This document shows positions 27,819 to 37,906 of a stretch of DNA of 64,000 bases, piece by piece. The DNA comes from Thermoprotei archaeon. GTDB lineage: Archaea; Thermoproteota; Thermoprotei; Gearchaeales; Gearchaeaceae. The stretch is taken from NCBI GenBank assembly GCA_017857595.1, contig JAFMCU010000006.1, forward strand, positions 10,364 through 74,363, written 5' to 3'. The notes beneath the pieces are model-generated. The model saw nothing but the letters and a program-made list of their open reading frames with translations, had not been told where the DNA came from and did no database searches. Within the stretch, counting starts at the first letter, position 1, and every line of letters starts with the position of its first letter. Both the position numbers and the translations under genes were made by a program.

Positions 27819-28553
27819 CTATAATACTGTTTCTATTAAGCTAAGAATTTTATTAAAGTCTTCATCTTTCTTATGCTTCTTGTAATTCATTAAAATTTTC
27901 CTAATTATATTTAGAAAATGCTCATTATTTTTTAATATTTTTGTAATTATTTCATTTTGATACAACAAATATGATAAAATACTTGTCAGATTTTTTGGAT
28001 TCCGCTTAACACTCGCTGATTCGAAATCTATAATTTTAACTTTATAATCACTTGTAATCAAAACATGCTTATTCGGTCTTGAAAGTTCACCATGATCAAT
28101 GCCAAGTTTATCTAGTTTTCTACACTGAATTAACAATTCAATTATTACTTTTTTTATCTCATTAAAATTTGATGCTTGTATAAAATTATCAATTTGAAAA
28201 CCTTCAATGTATTCCATTATTAAAAAATCCTTTGAGCGTTTATATAGAATAGGTCCTATGCTTTCAGAATTTACTTTTTTTAGTATGTTAGCTTCATGTA
28301 GTAATGTCTTTCTACTTGAATCAGTTCTTCTTATCTTAATAGCAACTTCTTTACCATTATAGATTGCTTTTACCACGATTGAATTTGTACCTTTACCTAA
28401 TATTCTAAAATTGTTAATCTTTATAGCTCCAAAATTTATGATTCTTTCTATTCCTAATTCATTCAATCTTTTTATTCTTCTTTTAGCTTCACATTTTGAA
28501 AATTTAGGATAACAAACTATTTTATGAAGATCTTTATTAATTTCCAACATCAA
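27819..28553 (-). CDS. Protein-kinase-like (RIO/Bud32-fold) protein
   Basis: GKGTNSIV, VAIK, HEA, HGELS, IIDFE. Confidence 0.85.
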   Translation of the reverse strand: MMLEINKDLHKIVCYPKFSKCEAKRRIKRLNELGIERIINFGAIKINNFRILGKGTNSIVVKAIYNGKEVAIKIRRTDSSRKTLLHEANILKKVNSESIGPILYKRSKDFLIMEYIEGFQIDNFIQASNFNEIKKVIIELLIQCRKLDKLGIDHGELSRPNKHVLITSDYKVKIIDFESASVKRNPKNLTSILSYLLYQNEIITKILKNNEHFLNIIRKILMNYKKHKKDEDFNKILSLIETVL

Positions 28554-29898
28554 GATTATATCTTTTAATTAGGTCATCCCTGAGCCACCATAAATTTTTA
28601 AAGACTAAGTCAACTGCGGCTCTCTTTACCCCTGAATTAATATCATCTTTAAGTTCAGTTAAAGTAGAATTTTTCAGTACTTTGACCAAATCTTTTGGTA
28701 ATTTTTCATTACTTAGCCATATGCTTATTGCTTCTTTCAAATTCTTAATTTTTCTGTTTGTGTAGGAAAATATTCTATAATTTTTAGTAAATATAATGTC
28801 ATTTTCATGCGAACTCAAAAATTTCTTAACGTGATTTAATTCATGCAAAGGCGGACCGATTAATAACTTTGAGTATGGTAAATTTTCTTGAGTTATTTCC
28901 AATAGAATTGAAGCTATCTGTTTTTCATCTGAATAGCATGCCGAATCAACAACATTAAATTCATTAAAGATTAGAAAGTTTGTTAAATTTCTCCTAGCTC
29001 TTTCTATCTCTCCCCAAAATACATCAGGAGCGATGTTAGGATAATCGAATTGAAGAATGAATATTTTTGTTCCTCTATCATTCAATGCTTTTATAGAAGA
29101 CGGTATGTTTTCAGAATACTTTCTTCCTAAAAAGAAATTAATCGAAGGCTTTTTTAAAAACAAATTGCAACCCAATTTAAAAATTCCCATTTTTCTAAAA
29201 GCTGCAGCAACATTTCTTTTCTTATCTACAGGATCGACCACAATCAGCTCCTGTGGTTCAAGTTTCCATTCACCCCCGATTATTGTTTTATAAGGGATCC
29301 AATTTAATGCGTTCTTTATTAAATTTAAAAAACTTCCATAATGGATAACTAGCAGTTCACAAAGATAGCCAGAGAATCCTCCTATTTTTATTTCTGCACC
29401 ATAAATATCCAATGTTTTTACAAATTTTTTAAAGATTCTTATTTCGGTTTTTAATTCATCGTTAAGAACCTTTCTTAAATAATTTGTATGCAGCCTTGTT
29501 CTATCGACTGCTGTTTGAATTTTTTCCCCTTCATTTATATAAACTGCTGGAACTATATCGAATTCATATTGCTTATAAATAACGGTTATAAATGGATGTT
29601 CAGCATATCTTTCTATGTAATTCGGAAATGTTTCTTTTGCAATTTTTAATCCGTTTTCAATTGCCTTTTCTTTATCTTCTTTACTAAATATGAAAATGTC
29701 AATATCTTTATCTTCCTTCAACCATGTATCATGAGCAAAAGATCCATGCAGCTCGATTATTGCTTCTATTCCAAGTTTTTCTTTAGTTTTTTCCAGTTTA
29801 TCTATAACTTCTTGAATTATTTTGTTTGAAGTTTCTACTTCTTCCTTAGGTATTTTAACTAAGTTCTTTGCTCTTTCTATAACTTCTTCAATTCTCAT
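28537..29898 (-). CDS. cca: CCA-adding tRNA nucleotidyltransferase (class I)
   Basis: GSFAHDTWL..DKDID, YAEHP, AVDRT, GGFSGYLCE, DPVD. Confidence 0.96.
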   Translation of the reverse strand: MRIEEVIERAKNLVKIPKEEVETSNKIIQEVIDKLEKTKEKLGIEAIIELHGSFAHDTWLKEDKDIDIFIFSKEDKEKAIENGLKIAKETFPNYIERYAEHPFITVIYKQYEFDIVPAVYINEGEKIQTAVDRTRLHTNYLRKVLNDELKTEIRIFKKFVKTLDIYGAEIKIGGFSGYLCELLVIHYGSFLNLIKNALNWIPYKTIIGGEWKLEPQELIVVDPVDKKRNVAAAFRKMGIFKLGCNLFLKKPSINFFLGRKYSENIPSSIKALNDRGTKIFILQFDYPNIAPDVFWGEIERARRNLTNFLIFNEFNVVDSACYSDEKQIASILLEITQENLPYSKLLIGPPLHELNHVKKFLSSHENDIIFTKNYRIFSYTNRKIKNLKEAISIWLSNEKLPKDLVKVLKNSTLTELKDDINSGVKRAAVDLVFKNLWWLRDDLIKRYNLDVGN

Positions 29899-30440
29899 AA
29901 ATTGAATACTTCAATATCTTTATAAATTGGTCCATTAGGGGTTAAAATACTTTGCTTTAGATTGAAATGATCTACTTCAAAAGTGCCAAAATCTTCATTC
30001 ATGTAATCGTTTATTAGTTTAATAACTTCTTTTATATTTTCTCTGTATTTAACCCTTGCTAATGTAATGTGCGGATGGAAGCCTTCTTCTTCAAATCTTA
30101 GTCCTTCAGACTTTATCTCTTCATTTACAAAATTATAAAGAGTTATAAGTTCTTGAAAGCCTTCTTTAACGCCTGCCCAAACCACTCTAGGATTGCTGAC
30201 CTTTGGAAATGCACCTAAACCATATACATGAACATTAAATTTCATGAATTTTACTTTCTTAAGAGCGTTCTTTAAAATATCAACAACAGTTTCGTTTATC
30301 TCGCCCAAGAATTTTAATGTAATATGAAGATTTTCTCTTTCAACAGGCTTTACGCCTTTAATGTTGAGTAAAGATGCAATGCTATAAAGCTTATCCAATA
30401 TTTTTGCATCACTTATTTCTACTGCTATGAAGCATCTCAT
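29895..30440 (-). CDS. thpR: RNA 2',3'-cyclic phosphodiesterase (2H family)
   Basis: Two HITL motifs, RVVWAG, GPIY. Confidence 0.94.
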   Translation of the reverse strand: MRCFIAVEISDAKILDKLYSIASLLNIKGVKPVERENLHITLKFLGEINETVVDILKNALKKVKFMKFNVHVYGLGAFPKVSNPRVVWAGVKEGFQELITLYNFVNEEIKSEGLRFEEEGFHPHITLARVKYRENIKEVIKLINDYMNEDFGTFEVDHFNLKQSILTPNGPIYKDIEVFNL

Positions 30441-30472
30441 TTGCTTATATAACTATAAATTATTATCATTTA

Positions 30473-31027
30473 TTGAATTTTCTTATGTCCATGAAAATAA
30501 TTTGCATAACAGGAATGCCACTATCAGGTAAGACAACAGCGTCTATGTTTCTAAAAGAAATAGGATTTCATGTAATTAGTATGGGAGATGTTGTTAGAAA
30601 GCTATACTTCAATGAAAAAAGTTATGCAAAAAAGTTGGAGGATTTTATTGTAGAAAAAAGGAATGAAATGGGTAAAGATTATTTTGCTAGAATGTGTGAA
30701 GAAGAAATAAAAAAGTCAAATAACATTACAGTGATAGACGGGGTTAGAAGTATTGAAGAAGCTGAATATTTCAGTAAAATTGGAAAAGTATCATTAATTG
30801 CAATACATGCCTCACCCACTACAAGATTTAAAAGAGCCTTAGAAAGAAAAAGAGAAGATGATCCTATTGATTTTAATGAATTTAAAAAGAGGGATATGAG
30901 AGAACTTTCATTTGGCTTAGGAAACTTGATATCTCTTTCAGATTACATGATTGTAAACGAATACGATAAAAAATATTTAAAAGATAATGTATTAAAAATA
31001 GCTGAAAGAATTTTAAATGAAAATTGA
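30473..31027 (+). CDS. P-loop nucleotide-kinase family protein (UPF0200)
   Basis: GMPLSGKT, MGDVVR, DGVRS, RDMRE; start may be the later Met (MKIICIT). Confidence 0.85.
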   Translation: MNFLMSMKIICITGMPLSGKTTASMFLKEIGFHVISMGDVVRKLYFNEKSYAKKLEDFIVEKRNEMGKDYFARMCEEEIKKSNNITVIDGVRSIEEAEYFSKIGKVSLIAIHASPTTRFKRALERKREDDPIDFNEFKKRDMRELSFGLGNLISLSDYMIVNEYDKKYLKDNVLKIAERILNEN

Positions 31028-31457
31028 AGTCATTACAGAATTGAGAGATACTGAAGATGAAAGAAAAGTTATGCTAGCATTGAATAATGTATTCATATAT
31101 AATAAGATAACAAAAATAAACAACTTAGGAAAAACATTCATTATAGCGGAAGGGAACAACATAAGCTGTTTAGAGAAAATTTCTAATTTAATAAGAAATT
31201 CGAGAATAGAATTATCCGCAAGATCTATACTTTTGAAATCGATAAAAGATGGAATGTTAAAGTTTAGTTTAAATAAACAAGCAGCATACATGAATAGAGT
31301 ATCCTTCTGTACAGTTGAAAATGAATCAGCTATGGGTCCAATAGATTTCAGAATAATATGCGAAAACTTTGAAAAGCTTATTGATTATATTGCACCTTTA
31401 CCTAAAAGAACTATTTCAAGACAAATTCAAAGAAATCCTGTGCAAGAAAAGTATTAG
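31017..31457 (+). CDS. UPF0201/DUF54 putative RNA-binding protein
   Basis: TEDERKV, LNKQAA, GPI, IAP. Confidence 0.85.
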   Translation: MKIEVITELRDTEDERKVMLALNNVFIYNKITKINNLGKTFIIAEGNNISCLEKISNLIRNSRIELSARSILLKSIKDGMLKFSLNKQAAYMNRVSFCTVENESAMGPIDFRIICENFEKLIDYIAPLPKRTISRQIQRNPVQEKY

Positions 31458-32316
31458 GAAACACTTCAGTACTTTCTGCTAAAAGCTGATCACCTTTTTC
31501 ATATCTTGCACTTATATGTGTTAATATTAAATTTTTTACATTTGCTTCTTTAGCAATTTTTGCAGCATCTCTTGCTGTTGAATGCCTATATTCTCTGGCT
31601 TTTGATTCTTCTTCATCTCCAAAAGTTGCTTCATGGATTAATACATCTGCGTTAAAGGAAAATTCCACGAGAGGCTTTGTTGGAGCTGCATCACCAGAAT
31701 AGACTATTATCTTACCTTTTCTAGATTCACCTAATACATCCGAGGGTCTTATAATCCTTCCATCCTTTAATCTAACTTCCTTTCCCAACTTTAAATCCCT
31801 TAGAAAAGGACCTTTTGGTATTTTCAATTCTTCAAGCTTTTCCTTTAAAATTTTAGGGGGCTTATCTTTCTCCTTTATTTTGTATGCAAAAGACTCTGTG
31901 CTGTGCTTAACTTTTATTGCGAAAACCTCATATTCTTCTGTTTCATAAATTTTGCCTTCTTCAATCTCAAATACTTTAAGACTAAAATTTCTATATGGCT
32001 TTAAAAAATCATCTAAAAATTCTAGGAATTTCTTTATTCCTTTAGGACCATATATATTCAAATCTTCTCTTCTCATATCCAATCCCATACTCCAAATGAC
32101 ACCAGGCAGACCAAAAAAGTGGTCTCCGTGAAGATGGGTTATAAGTATGTTTTTAATTTTATTGGGATTTATACCAGCAATTAACATTTGTCTTTGTGTT
32201 CCTTCACCGCAATCTAAAAGTAAAGTCTCTTTTTCAAATTCTACAACAATCGCAGGCAAGCCTCGATATTTTGTTGGCTTGCTTCCTGTAGTTCCTAAAA
32301 ACTTTATCCTTATCAT
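31411..32316 (-). CDS. rnz: Ribonuclease Z (short form)
   Basis: DCGEGTQ, HLHGDH, exosite GP motif, HEAT, HST, HISARY. Confidence 0.96.
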   Translation of the reverse strand: MIRIKFLGTTGSKPTKYRGLPAIVVEFEKETLLLDCGEGTQRQMLIAGINPNKIKNILITHLHGDHFFGLPGVIWSMGLDMRREDLNIYGPKGIKKFLEFLDDFLKPYRNFSLKVFEIEEGKIYETEEYEVFAIKVKHSTESFAYKIKEKDKPPKILKEKLEELKIPKGPFLRDLKLGKEVRLKDGRIIRPSDVLGESRKGKIIVYSGDAAPTKPLVEFSFNADVLIHEATFGDEEESKAREYRHSTARDAAKIAKEANVKNLILTHISARYEKGDQLLAESTEVFPNTFLAQDFFEFVLK

Positions 32317-33317
32317 TAGCTTCTAATTTCCTTTTTCAAAACATATATGTTACGGTAAAGATTGCCTTTTACTTTTTGCCTATAAAAGAATTCGACTTTA
32401 AAGTTCTTATTTTTATTTTCTTCCGTTGTTGCAATTGATAACTTCTTTATATCGTAAATCTCTAAATTCCTTAAAAAATTGTAAAATAAAGAAGATTTTT
32501 CTCTACCTTTTACGGAAGAAGCTATACCATAGGGCATATCTGTAGCTACATAATCAATTTTCCTAAGTGGAATATTTTCTGCATCAGCTTGAACTAAATC
32601 TACATTATATTTATTGAAAAACTTTATGTTTTTCAAAGCTCCTCTTACCATTTTCCTATCTATATCAACTCCAACACAATAATCTACAAAATATGAAGCT
32701 TCTATAAGAAAACCTCCTGAACCACAAAAAGGGTCTAGAAGAAAATTGTTTATTTCTACCTGTGATAAGTTAACAATGCAACGAGCTAACTTTGGCATCA
32801 TTGAAGAAGAATGAAAGAATGGTCTTTTACTTGGCCTTCTTATTTCGTATTGCTTGTTATTAATATTTGCAATTAAAACTCCTAAGTATAAATTATCATC
32901 TAATATTAAGCATTTTAAAATTTTTGTAGCATTTTTAACACTTAACTTAATATCTTTTGAACTAAGGATACTTAAAATTTCATTTCTTATTGAGTTAATT
33001 AGAGGTTTATATTTGTTATCAAATGAATGTAGATCTAAATAGTAAATTGCATCAAGTCTTAGATTTTTTAATTCAGGTTTTTTAAAGAAATCCTGTAAAT
33101 TTCCTCGGTAAATTAATTCTATGGCGTATTTTAGCATGGAACATCTCCAGAATAAATAATCAACGAAAAATTTATCCAGTCTTATTATAAGGATTTGCCT
33201 GTTTTTATAAATGTCTTCATATTCTAAATTTAAAGATGATAAGCAAGATTTTAATTCTTTTTCGGCAAGAATTAAATTTTCTCCGTTTAAAATTATAGCA
33301 ATCTCATCTTTTTCCAT
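32316..33317 (-). CDS. trm11: tRNA (guanine-10-N2) methyltransferase Trm11/TrmG10
   Basis: RPFF, LDPFCGSG, TDMPYG; N-terminal THUMP-like region. Confidence 0.85.
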   Translation of the reverse strand: MEKDEIAIILNGENLILAEKELKSCLSSLNLEYEDIYKNRQILIIRLDKFFVDYLFWRCSMLKYAIELIYRGNLQDFFKKPELKNLRLDAIYYLDLHSFDNKYKPLINSIRNEILSILSSKDIKLSVKNATKILKCLILDDNLYLGVLIANINNKQYEIRRPSKRPFFHSSSMMPKLARCIVNLSQVEINNFLLDPFCGSGGFLIEASYFVDYCVGVDIDRKMVRGALKNIKFFNKYNVDLVQADAENIPLRKIDYVATDMPYGIASSVKGREKSSLFYNFLRNLEIYDIKKLSIATTEENKNKNFKVEFFYRQKVKGNLYRNIYVLKKEIRS

Positions 33318-33527
33318 TCAGGCCCATCTTTCCCTTTCCAGTGTTCTTTCTTCCTTTGTTTCCCTCTTCCAAATTTTATAATGTTCTTTGCAAAGATAAA
33401 CTTTGTTCGAAGTTTTATCCAAATTTAAAGAATTAGCCATACTAGCTCTTGAATAGGATAAAGACCTTTCTGCTTGATTGTTACAACCTAATACACTACA
33501 CTTCACACCTTTATCTACTTTCCCCAT
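33318..33527 (-). CDS. Small basic zinc-binding protein (C-x4-C...C-x2-H)
   Basis: CSVLGC...[10 protein letters not shown]; overlaps rpl13e and abuts trm11. Confidence 0.8.
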
Positions 33528-33876
33528 GCTTTTTCTTCCACTTGTGTTTATGTGTTAACTTAAGTTTATCTTTACGTAGACCTCGCATCTTTTTTCCTGC
33601 AGAAGTAAGTCCTCTAAATACTCTTTTTCTATTTGCTTGAGGTTTCAAAGTTTTTAATTTCTTTTTCTTTGATTTTAATTCTTTAATGTCCAATTTTTTG
33701 AGCTTTTGAACGTTTTCATCATATTTTGTGCTTCTTCTTAAGTCAACCGGAATTCCAAAGCTTAATGCTTGCTTTAGAGAAATGTTTGCCTCTTTCAACT
33801 CGTCCAAACTGAAACCTCTTCCTTTTCTAATTATGCCTTTAGTTTTAACTATTGCAAAGATTTGTTCACTTGACAT
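33511..33876 (-). CDS. rpl13e: 50S ribosomal protein eL13 with fused eL15-type C-terminal tail
   Basis: [23 protein letters not shown] core; tail [23 protein letters not shown]. Confidence 0.92.
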
Positions 33877-34315
33877 TTCCTCTATATATCCATTTTAAAT
33901 CTTTATCTTTCTTTAAGCTCGTACTAAAAGGGTCTACAAGGATTACTTCATACCATTTATATTTTCCATCCTCAGCAACATAATAAGAATTCAAAACTTC
34001 CATGTTTGGAAACTTTCTTTGAGCTTTCTCTTCAGCTATAAGCCTAAGATTTTTTTTCAATGTTAACCTAACCACACCCATCCTTTTAGGTCTCCTACCA
34101 CTTCTAGGCCTTTGCTTTTCCATTTTACCCTTCCTGACTTTTACTCTAACAACAATGACTCCTTGCTTGGCTTTATATCCAAGCATTCTAGCTTTATAGA
34201 CTTTAGTTGGCCTTTCTAGCCTTTTTACAGTAGGTTCTTTTCTCCATTCAATTAATCTTTGCTTCAATTCATCCTTATAATTTTCTTGGATGAGCTTTGA
34301 ATATTTACCTAGCAT
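33866..34315 (-). CDS. rpl15e: 50S ribosomal protein eL15, C-terminally truncated (149 aa)
   Basis: [38 protein letters not shown]; ends just after KW. Confidence 0.95.
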
Positions 34316-35324: not shown

Positions 35325-37850
35325 TTATTTAGGTCTTCTCGCTGCTAATGCAACTGCTACTATTGAAACTATCAATGTTATGATTACTAGAACTAATGTA
35401 TACAATGAATAATTGCTTGCTGTGCTTGCATTACTATTTGCACTGCTTGCTGAAGATTGTATTGAGCTAAGTGTTGTATTAATAGTTCCTAAGTTGGTCT
35501 GTATTGTTGCTACTCCATTACTGACACTTGTAACAGTTCCTTGTAATGTTCCTATAGCAGTTTTTATTGAAACAACGTTTCCATTAACTTGTGTTATTGT
35601 TGTATTCAATGCACTTAATGTCATGTTTAATGTTCCGATTGCAGTTGAAAGCGTAGCTACATTTCCGTTCAAAGCTACTATTGTTGCATTTATTTGCTTC
35701 AAGAATGTGACAACTTGGTTTAATGTCATGTTTAATGTTCCGATTGCAGTTGAAAGCGTAGCTACATTTCCGTTCAAAGCTACTATTGTTGCATTTATTT
35801 GCTTCAAGAATGTGACAACTTGGTTTAATGTCATGTTTAATGTTCCAACACTTGTTACTAATTTTGCAACAGTAGTGTTCAATGAATTAACGCTGCTATT
35901 AAGAATCGTCAACGTTGCATTAATGTTTTGCAAGGCAGCTAGAACGAAATCACCTTGTGGAGATACCCAGAATGTAACATAGGCATCAATTACATATTGA
36001 CCAGGAGCAACTTGCTCATATAAAGCAAGGGAATGGAGTCCAGGTCTGAATCCTGCAGCTACCATTTGAACTAGCAAATCTCCTGTACCATTTGCTGATA
36101 CTCCAGAGGATGAAGAAGGAGATACAGGTAAATTGTCTTGTGCTAAGAAGTATGTTGTAGTAGGATCTAAACCTTGTCCTGTAACATTGAAAACTTTACC
36201 ATTATTTGTTATAGTTTGAACAGCTTGTTGAGTATTACTTGATAAGGTAAATGAAAGTGATAAGCTTGGTGTTACTGTAAAGGTTCCTGTACCTATGATA
36301 TCAGCTGCTGGGAACGGAGTAGCTTGTGTTTTTCCTAAGTAATGATTTGAAGCTACAACAGTATGACCTCCTCCGAATGAGTGAGCTGGAACCGTAAAAG
36401 ACACTGTTACATTGAATAATCCATTCGCACCTGTTGTCGCATTCATAAACCAATAATATGTAGTACCTGGTGAATTACCACCTAGCCAATACAAATAAAC
36501 ATTTGAACTTGCTGGGAAACCGTACGCTGCTACGCTAACGTTTGTTCCTACTGGCCCAGAGCTTGGTGTTAATACTAAAGTTGGTTGAACGTTTAATTTA
36601 AACGTATAAGTTACACCATGATTTACAACGCTTACAACATTTATTCCAACTGGTAATGCTGGAACTGTAAAGGTCGTGTTAAAGAAGCCTGTAGCATTAG
36701 TAGTTGTATTGAATGTTGATGTTCCAACTACTATTTGAACTAAAGCGCTGGGTGTGAAATTACCTCCAGCTAGTTGTACAACATCGAAAACATTTACAAT
36801 TAGTTGAGCTGTTGCGTTTCCATAGAATGTTGAACTTGTAAGCATTCCTGTAGCAGAAGCTCCACTTGTTACATCCGTAATTTGTTTAAGTACTCTTGTA
36901 TATTCATTGAATGGAGTTGTTGATGTAGCTACAACTTGTGCAGTATTCGATGCATTAACTGCCTCAAAACTGATTGAAACTGATTGCTGTGTAGCACTTG
37001 TTGCACTGTTTGGATTAACAGATGCTCCTGTATCAGGAGCTGTTCCTGTTGCTGTGAAATATCCTGAACCTGTACTAACACCAGAGACTACGACTAAATT
37101 AGAAACTGTAACTAGGAATCCAGCCCAGTTTGTATACCTATATGTGGCATTAACATTTACTGTCATGTTTGCTGGAAATCCTCCGCCAACAAAGGTCAAC
37201 GTTTGACCAGCAACTCCTGCAGTGGGTGAAACAACGAAATTAGGCTTAACATTTACAGTTTGTATGCTAACAGCAACGGATGTCGTAGATCCGTCGAATA
37301 TTTTAACATACTTGTAAGCTGAACTTACCTTTAACGGTATTGGTCCTACGATTAATTGATATGAAATTCCGCTTATTGTTACAGTTCCTACATAAAATGT
37401 TGCAGAACTTGTGGTAAAGTAAGAAGAGTTGACTGGAATTGTATAAGCTTGATAAGCTCCTTGCAATTGAGATACACTAAATGGTCCAGCATATTCAACA
37501 TCACCAGAACTTATTTGGGAGAAACCGTTTGTACTGAAATATAATAAGAATTGGCTTCCTGAAAAAGTAACATATGTCGTTGCTCCTGCTGCAAAAACTA
37601 AAGCAAAATATCCAGCTTGAGCGACTGCATCTACTGCAGTAACAGTTGATGTTCCTGCTGTTACGTTAACACTTGTTGTTGCAACGGTTATTGCTGTTGG
37701 AGCAGCTGCATTATTTACTGAAGCTAATTTAGGAGCTCCTGTAGAAGCATATACAGGTGCAACGTTTACTAAAGCAACTCCTAGAACGGATCCTATTAGT
37801 ATCGCTAGTATTAATATGCTTGCTAATCTACTATTTTTTAAATTTCCCAT
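35325..37850 (-). CDS. S-layer-like surface glycoprotein (signal peptide, Ig/IPT-like domains, coiled-coil stalk, C-terminal TM anchor)
   Basis: Sec signal ending PVYA; Thr/Ser/Val/Asn-rich with many NxS/T sequons; repeats of P..G.vG..v.v.g.GFP; heptad stalk; TM followed by RRPK. Start at 37850 chosen from TATA spacing (ORF track gives 37868). Confidence 0.8.
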   Translation of the reverse strand: MGNLKNSRLASILILAILIGSVLGVALVNVAPVYASTGAPKLASVNNAAAPTAITVATTSVNVTAGTSTVTAVDAVAQAGYFALVFAAGATTYVTFSGSQFLLYFSTNGFSQISSGDVEYAGPFSVSQLQGAYQAYTIPVNSSYFTTSSATFYVGTVTISGISYQLIVGPIPLKVSSAYKYVKIFDGSTTSVAVSIQTVNVKPNFVVSPTAGVAGQTLTFVGGGFPANMTVNVNATYRYTNWAGFLVTVSNLVVVSGVSTGSGYFTATGTAPDTGASVNPNSATSATQQSVSISFEAVNASNTAQVVATSTTPFNEYTRVLKQITDVTSGASATGMLTSSTFYGNATAQLIVNVFDVVQLAGGNFTPSALVQIVVGTSTFNTTTNATGFFNTTFTVPALPVGINVVSVVNHGVTYTFKLNVQPTLVLTPSSGPVGTNVSVAAYGFPASSNVYLYWLGGNSPGTTYYWFMNATTGANGLFNVTVSFTVPAHSFGGGHTVVASNHYLGKTQATPFPAADIIGTGTFTVTPSLSLSFTLSSNTQQAVQTITNNGKVFNVTGQGLDPTTTYFLAQDNLPVSPSSSSGVSANGTGDLLVQMVAAGFRPGLHSLALYEQVAPGQYVIDAYVTFWVSPQGDFVLAALQNINATLTILNSSVNSLNTTVAKLVTSVGTLNMTLNQVVTFLKQINATIVALNGNVATLSTAIGTLNMTLNQVVTFLKQINATIVALNGNVATLSTAIGTLNMTLSALNTTITQVNGNVVSIKTAIGTLQGTVTSVSNGVATIQTNLGTINTTLSSIQSSASSANSNASTASNYSLYTLVLVIITLIVSIVAVALAARRPK
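35615..35846. repeat. Exact 105-bp tandem repeat (2.2 copies) within the stalk of the surface protein
   Basis: Unit starting TTAATGTCATGTTTAATGTTCC at 35615, 35720 and 35825. Confidence 0.95.
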
Positions 37851-37906
37851 TTTTACGCTAAGAAGCATTTTAATTATAAGTTTATAAGTTTTTCCATTTT
37901 TACAAT

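Follow-up and report, generated by a model that had tools for sequence, protein, structure and literature searches.

Known forms of eL15 and eL13

In canonical eL15 proteins (Pfam PF00827; 8hku_L15E, 4v6u/6skf eL15, RPL15), a globular core and a C-terminal tail form one polypeptide, and the tail is also kept on eL15 in the Sulfolobus-type 50S subunit (8HKU, chain 8hku_L15E). The short archaeal form of eL13 (~75-110 aa; NCBIfam NF008914), present in Sulfolobales-type genomes and most Bathyarchaeia, ends after the core helix, whereas eukaryotic eL13 carries an unrelated extension, and no protein of either form has the RGLTSAG tail. In yeast, the two proteins are neighbours in the large subunit, as the first-pass annotation of the locus described here had stated: a passage of PMC4671574 places eL8, eL13, eL15 and eL36 in one protein cluster on domain I of the large subunit, and according to a passage of PMC7804294 the extensions of eL13 and eL15 meet on uL4. 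Rare genomic changes in a core machine that track major clades are known from split and fused archaeal information genes such as RpoA/RpoB (a table in PMC3082918). Those cases are plain splits or fusions of one protein, whereas here a module was moved to a neighbouring protein.

The eL15 and eL13 genes of the window

The window, which is the whole stretch of 64,000 nucleotides that was analysed, holds the following features.

33866..34315, minus strand: rpl15e without C-terminal tail (eL15 core, 149 aa), assigned by Pfam, NCBIfam and the identity to relatives
33866..33884, minus strand: junction, with the eL15 stop TGA at 33866-33868 and the eL13 start ATG at 33874-33876, read from the sequence
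33511-33876, minus strand: whole eL13+tail ORF, 121 aa
33667..33876, minus strand: rpl13e core (aa 1-70 of the 121-aa ORF), Pfam PF01294 on aa 16-86; best solved relative 9e6q_AH
33514..33666, minus strand: eL15-derived tail on eL13 (aa 71-121; ends THKHKWKKK), Pfam PF00827 positions 144-189
33511-33513, minus strand: stop codon of the eL13+tail ORF

The 149-aa ORF matches Pfam PF00827 (Ribosomal_L15e) at profile positions 16-153 of 191 (E 1.6e-56, 191.4 bits, cut-off 27) and NCBIfam NF003269 (L15e) at positions 15-154 of 196 with 219.5 bits, above the 178-bit cut-off. It aligns full length with canonical eL15 chains (E 1e-47 to 1e-25) and is 59-64% identical to the eL15 core of relatives. The conserved KW is followed by 7 aa and the stop codon, and the tail (profile positions ~154-190) is absent from the same polypeptide. 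Of a canonical eL15, the globular core is found in this ORF and the C-terminal tail in the next one. The first-pass annotation had claimed that eL15 stops at 149 aa without its tail, which agrees with the end of the Pfam match in the ORF at 33866-34315 (-). A second eL15, which could have been a full-length copy elsewhere, was not found by profile search of the window's genome (89.9% complete, 60 contigs).

The 121-aa ORF carries two domains. Pfam PF01294 (Ribosomal_L13e) matches aa 16-86 (E 1.3e-12, 48.4 bits, cut-off 24.9), and PF00827 matches aa 71-116 with its profile positions 144-189 of 191 (E 1.6e-7, 31.6 bits, cut-off 27), both above the gathering scores. NCBIfam L15e covers positions 144-192 of 196 on this ORF, a complementary split as in Pfam. 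It had been suggested beforehand that this ORF joins an eL13 core to the eL15 C-terminal tail and that the eL15 profile should match both ORFs in complementary segments, and both expectations were borne out by Pfam and NCBIfam, well above chance. The NCBIfam equivalog of short archaeal L13e, NF008914, is not reached (58 bits against a cut-off of 96); the core is divergent and the C-terminus foreign. The core GRGFS...D.RR...ENV.AL is common to the window, short archaeal and eukaryotic eL13. Short archaeal eL13 ends where the window protein continues into the tail, and eukaryotic chains align only to window aa ~10-90. The tail motif is the same sequence element as in canonical eL15, and in a 47-aa alignment with the tail of one outgroup genome's full-length eL15, the window tail has 62% identity. 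Homology of the eL13 tail to the eL15 C-terminus, also claimed earlier, is thus upheld by Pfam, NCBIfam, a profile of eL13+tail proteins and outgroup eL15 sequences. Among 20 eL13+tail proteins, the residues R85, F87, T91, G94, R98, G99, H109 and K112 of the tail are invariant. Beyond the 121-aa ORF, no eL13 match was found by profile search of the window's genome (89.9% complete).

The eL13 start lies in the +1 frame inside the last 11 nt of the eL15 ORF (ATGTCAAGTGA), which gives an overlap of 11 nt, and a purine-rich AGAGG is located 2 nt upstream of the eL13 ATG. In nine relatives of the window's order, the two genes are at most 1 nt apart and at most 20 nt overlapped when the first start codon is taken as the eL13 start. 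The frame offsets among these nine junctions are 0, 1 or 2, and therefore no frameshift is conserved. In one family relative (L064:767-1660, minus strand), eL15 and eL13+tail are in one frame with a single TAG between them.

Downstream, a 69-aa Cys/His zinc-finger-like ORF (33318-33527, minus strand) shares 17 nt with the end of the eL13 ORF. Relatives of the window's order have this ORF in the corresponding position (E 3e-14 to 1e-27), and its only Pfam match, to THAP, is weak (E 0.019). Elsewhere in the window, an 847-aa Thr/Ser/Val-rich, secreted-looking protein (35325-37868, minus strand) resembles a surface-layer protein by its sequence; a segment of ~35 aa is duplicated close to the C-terminus, and the end is hydrophobic.

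The same swapped state is found in the Pyrobaculum calidifontis ribosome (PDB 9E6Q/9E71/9E7F). Its eL13 in the 50S subunit of 9E6Q (chain 9e6q_AH, 157 aa, with the tail) is the best solved relative of the window eL13 (E 1e-20), and its eL15 is chain 9e6q_AM with 189 aa. P. calidifontis differs from the window in that the genes are unlinked, the tail exceeds that of the window by ~20 aa and a new basic extension is present on eL15.

Taken together, the locus is read, with a probability of roughly 80%, as two tightly coupled genes, of which rpl15e encodes the globular core and the next gene an eL13 core followed by the canonical eL15 tail.

Distribution in the class and in outgroups

By Pfam scan, an eL15 match was found in 39 of the 41 genomes of the same class, and all 39 matches end at or before profile position 176; the two genomes without a match are 91% and 81% complete. 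In 34 of these 39 genomes, another ORF, with a length of 127-255 aa, gives a second eL15 match (positions ~150-189). Sixteen of the second ORFs were inspected together with adjacent ones, and each has an eL13 core followed by RGR[AV]... ETH-YKWKKK, mostly running on to KER-LKKRHEA. With a profile of eL13+tail (A1), built from 20 proteins and searched against 301 genomes of the phylum, a single ORF holding both core and tail was recovered from 43/43 class genomes. Among the outgroup matches listed (131 weaker ones lie outside), there were core-only ORFs of 69-176 aa or tails only, in ORFs of 221-285 aa. A second profile likewise gave core plus tail in 43/43 class genomes and in none among the matches listed from 124 matching outgroup genomes (17 outside). 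The window protein matches A1 at positions 22-144 (E 1.3e-40) and, together with its tail-less eL15, is in the swapped state. In terms of database labels, 33 of 37 loci are swapped and belong to Pyrobaculum, Thermoproteus, Thermofilum/Thermofilaceae, Thermoproteales, 'Thermoprotei archaeon' and Candidatus Geoarchaeota, and the four tail-only loci are labelled Ignisphaera, Sulfolobales and Desulfurococcales.

A survey for short eL15 with long eL13 had been proposed, and within the phylum it identified the 43 class genomes of 301, so that the idea of a strong clade marker is well founded (43/43 in the class against none among the outgroup matches listed). The accompanying claim of a rare rearrangement stands as far as the clade marker is concerned; a local rarity of this one genome it is not, as the state is class-wide and recurs in a subgroup of Bathyarchaeia.

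In five outgroup genomes of the Sulfolobales type, eL15 has 220-245 aa including the tail, eL13 has 81-102 aa, and the genes are unlinked; 20 further outgroup eL15 proteins have the same form. The ends of class eL13 match the ends of outgroup eL15, and therefore eL13 carries the tail in full, down to the distal part that is specific to the lineage. The tail was found on eL13 or on eL15 and never on both in the class, in the five Sulfolobales-type genomes, at 33 loci labelled Bathyarchaeia and in five Bathyarchaeia genomes with the swap.

Class eL15 often carries a new basic extension of 15-45 aa at its C-terminus. The idea that these extensions are remnants of the distal tail found no support, since an HMM of 24 outgroup tails gave 16 of them scores no better than those of 200 shuffles each (p 0.065-0.95).

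Outside the class, an eL15 match was obtained in 109 outgroup genomes, and in 40 of them it extends at least to profile position 175. In the other 69, eL15 ends at or before position 172, mostly at 137-165, in ORFs of ~145-190 aa (e.g. G041, G049, G046, G042), and no tail elsewhere was detected in these genomes among the matches listed for the eL13+tail profile. Judging from these ORFs, an eL15 that lacks the tail seems to be frequent across the phylum. Some lineages therefore manage with no tail, and 'one tail per ribosome' does not hold strictly.

Proposed placement of the tail and alternative explanations

According to the proposed mechanism, the rpl15e product would be the globular eL15 core alone, and the C-terminus of eL13 would bring the ~40-60-residue tail that elsewhere (Sulfolobales/Desulfurococcales, Euryarchaeota, eukaryotes) is eL15's own C-terminus. 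With eL13 presumably bound beside eL15 on the large subunit, the tail could reach the same rRNA pocket from eL13, with one copy per ribosome, and we infer that the eL13-borne tail fills the pocket of the eL15 tail.

A different placement, in which the tail on eL13 has taken up a new site or function and does not replace the eL15 tail, is unlikely. The basic extension of class eL15 could occupy the old site, and many lineages live without any tail, which leaves some room for such a role. The motif residues, however, do not vary among the eL13 proteins and agree with the consensus of eL15, and the tail is mutually exclusive between the two proteins in every genome examined. Far less probable is a single polypeptide, in which a programmed +1 frameshift or read-through would yield an eL15-eL13-tail chain with eL13 as an inserted domain. 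The 11-nt overlap in the +1 frame and the lone TAG between the same-frame ORFs of L064 would fit this, but the frame offsets of 0, 1 and 2 among the nine relatives do not, and the genes are unlinked in most of the class. In all longer database proteins (107 matches of 213-284 aa, query coverage 17-42%), the eL15 domain stands alone, and a single-chain eL15-eL13 fusion was found in none of them (0/107 with both domains). In addition, eL13 and eL15 of P. calidifontis are listed as separate chains in the PDB. Accordingly, rpl15e and eL13+tail are two separate genes with separate products. That the arrangement is an artefact, be it an assembly error, an eL15 pseudogene in decay or a motif arisen by chance, is hardly credible: the assembly is in 60 contigs and 89.9% complete, which could invite such a suspicion, but the arrangement recurs in eight other assemblies of the window's order, the Pfam and NCBIfam scores are strong and the state is conserved throughout the class.

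A second occurrence in Bathyarchaeia

Searches of the protein database also revealed eL13 proteins of 101-126 aa that end with an RGRV[FY]-type tail. Such short eL13+tail genes were found at 13 loci labelled Bathyarchaeota or Hecatellales (L137-L149), with no eL15 nearby. In the five genomes of this group (G317-G321), referred to as Bathy-swap genomes, eL15 is truncated in 5/5 (match ends 152-157) and lies on another contig. As in the window's family, the neighbours of this truncated eL15 are the GTPase and 2-hydroxyacid dehydrogenase genes.

In an EF-2 tree, in which the row of the G011 locus represents a wrong ORF and is to be disregarded and G320 had no EF-2 match, the four remaining Bathy-swap genomes group with other Bathyarchaeia (support 100), apart from the class. 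Three genomes labelled Bathyarchaeia (G321, G322, G323) have two aEF-2 genes each, and the two types form separate deep clades. A tree of the eL13 core (69 columns, 59 sequences) has a deep support of 36-60 and does not separate an independent origin of the Bathyarchaeia form from a transfer.

At the other 33 loci labelled Bathyarchaeia, every eL15 bears its tail. A short eL13 lies 3' of the full eL15 at -58 to +97 nt in 26 of the 33 and at 0.6-1.0 kb in two more, and the PF01877 gene comes next in 33/33, often followed by the gene for RNase P p30 (rpp30). From this order, rpl15e(full)-rpl13e(short)-PF01877-rpp30, in most Bathyarchaeia, it follows that the two genes were probably once neighbours, arranged as a local exchange would require.

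It may tentatively be proposed that the tail is a portable rRNA-binding module which was discarded in many lineages and whose move from eL15 to eL13 took place independently on two or more occasions, one in the stem of the class and one inside Bathyarchaeia. If so, neighbouring proteins of the ribosome could take turns, over evolution, in providing a conserved rRNA-threading element.

Gene order and origin of the swap

In the window's order, the genes run dehydrogenase, eL15, eL13+tail, zinc-finger ORF, methyltransferase, metallo-beta-lactamase (MBL), PF01877 paralog and kinase. The stretch from 28537 to 33317 encodes a UPF0020 methyltransferase, a metallo-beta-lactamase/RNase Z-like protein, a divergent PF01877 paralog, an AAA_18 kinase and two more genes, and this whole set is shared by the window and Sulfolobales-type genomes (L099, L095, L096). 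The block from methyltransferase to kinase is ancient and is found without eL13 in outgroups. A YGR210-like GTPase flanks eL15 in the window and in 3/5 outgroup genomes, and a 2-hydroxyacid dehydrogenase lies upstream of eL15 in the window, in G032 and in the Bathy-swap genomes.

Elsewhere in the class, gene order is different. At least five class families resemble Sulfolobales-type genomes in that the PF01877 gene comes directly after eL15 (PF01877-p30-Pop5-proteasome alpha). The window's genome has its PF01877 gene on another contig, along with adjoining genes of the superoperon. In 10/10 genomes of one family, including Pyrobaculum-like ones, eL13+tail lies ~3.6 kb upstream of the same PF01877 paralog, and the methyltransferase is located between them in G019, the one genome examined in detail. 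Among the 32 class loci that the gene-order pattern could score, eL15 was directly upstream of eL13+tail in one, labelled Candidatus Geoarchaeota. Three relatives of the window's family show the adjacency as in the window. From the eL15-PF01877 adjacency and the shared linkage of eL13 to the methyltransferase, it can be argued that eL15 and eL13 were already apart in the ancestor of the crown group. In the EF-2 tree, the window's order falls inside the class and not at its base, with weak support (30-84).

The swap itself rather likely arose by an exchange between neighbouring rpl15e and rpl13e, which are adjacent in that order as a rule in Bathyarchaeia. The first-pass annotation had inferred an insertion of rpl13e into rpl15e. 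The exchange between neighbours is made likely by the Bathyarchaeia, whereas insertion is one of several routes and the adjacency in the window may be secondary. For the adjacency in the window's order, re-formation by a later rearrangement comes close to even odds, and survival as a relic of the exchange is possible, somewhat short of such odds. Every history drafted needs one re-created or convergent adjacency, and the EF-2 placement is weak.

An insertion would have placed the rpl13e ORF between the core and the tail codons of rpl15e, with the window as direct relic and the rest of the class separated later. The gene order of core, eL13 and tail is exactly as this predicts, 26-28 of the 33 Bathyarchaeia-labelled loci have rpl13e next to rpl15e in this order, and the window eL15 retains its old 5' neighbours (YGR210-like GTPase, 2-hydroxyacid dehydrogenase). 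This route is nevertheless to be regarded with some doubt. The adjacency is confined to the window's order (8 relatives; 1/32 scorable class loci), which the EF-2 tree does not put basally, eL15 and PF01877 are directly adjacent in outgroups and in at least five class families, and the linkage of eL13+tail to the methyltransferase block is common to another family; given these two linkages, an insertion would call either for eL15 and PF01877 to have become neighbours anew or for the link between eL13 and the methyltransferase to have arisen by convergence. Those same features of class synteny, with eL15 next to PF01877 and eL13+tail near the methyltransferase block, speak for another course of events, in which rpl13e, by then no longer linked to rpl15e, received the tail by copying or transfer (e.g. 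by partial duplication of the rpl15e 3' end), the eL15 tail was lost and the adjacency in the window came later. The location of the PF01877 gene and its superoperon neighbours on another contig in the window's genome would agree with this, as would the eL13 genes already unlinked from eL15 in 5/5 Sulfolobales-type genomes. It would, however, require a precise in-frame graft at a distance and a later coincidence that restored the ancestral gene order with stop/start overlap, and no remnant of a duplicated tail was recognised in the 16 class eL15 extensions compared with shuffles; such a graft is a real possibility that falls a little below an even chance.

Three other attempts were given up. 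A duplicated block of tail and PF01877 beside eL13 was rejected, as the paralog is present in 5/5 outgroup genomes checked; it lies within the methyltransferase-MBL-paralog-kinase block in 3/5 and near eL13 in 0/5. An excision-and-circle model predicts a tail-less eL15 followed by PF01877 in the Bathy-swap genomes, and no PF01877 homolog was found within 1.5 kb on each side in any of them (0/5). A combined tree of eL15 and eL13+tail (300 columns, 25 genomes) did not recover the class, showed long-branch effects and was set aside.

Novelty and meaning

Literature searches of main texts found no description of a tail transfer from eL15 to eL13. By term search, eL13 and eL15 go unmentioned in the main text of the P. 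calidifontis preprint (10.1101/2024.11.12.623245), and the terms searched in the texts of a 2023 review on archaeal and eukaryotic ribosomal proteins (PMC9932298) and of the ribosomal protein network paper (PMC7804294) led to no description of the transfer. A conserved extension handed between neighbouring ribosomal proteins and fixed in a whole class has thus apparently not been described before. Databases name the eL13+tail proteins plain 'ribosomal protein L13e' yet list both precomputed Pfam domains. This is relevant to annotation, and the class eL15 genes could be mistaken for truncated genes.

Both eL13 and eL15 enter early in yeast ribosome assembly, and for this reason the swap bears on assembly order. 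The placement of the tail is directly testable on the existing 2.0-2.4 Å structure. As a discrete and easily scored rare genomic change, the swap unites Thermoproteales, Thermofilales and Geoarchaeota-type lineages against Sulfolobales/Desulfurococcales. It also indicates that a conserved rRNA-threading extension can come from a different ribosomal protein, which bears on the evolution of ribosomal protein extensions.
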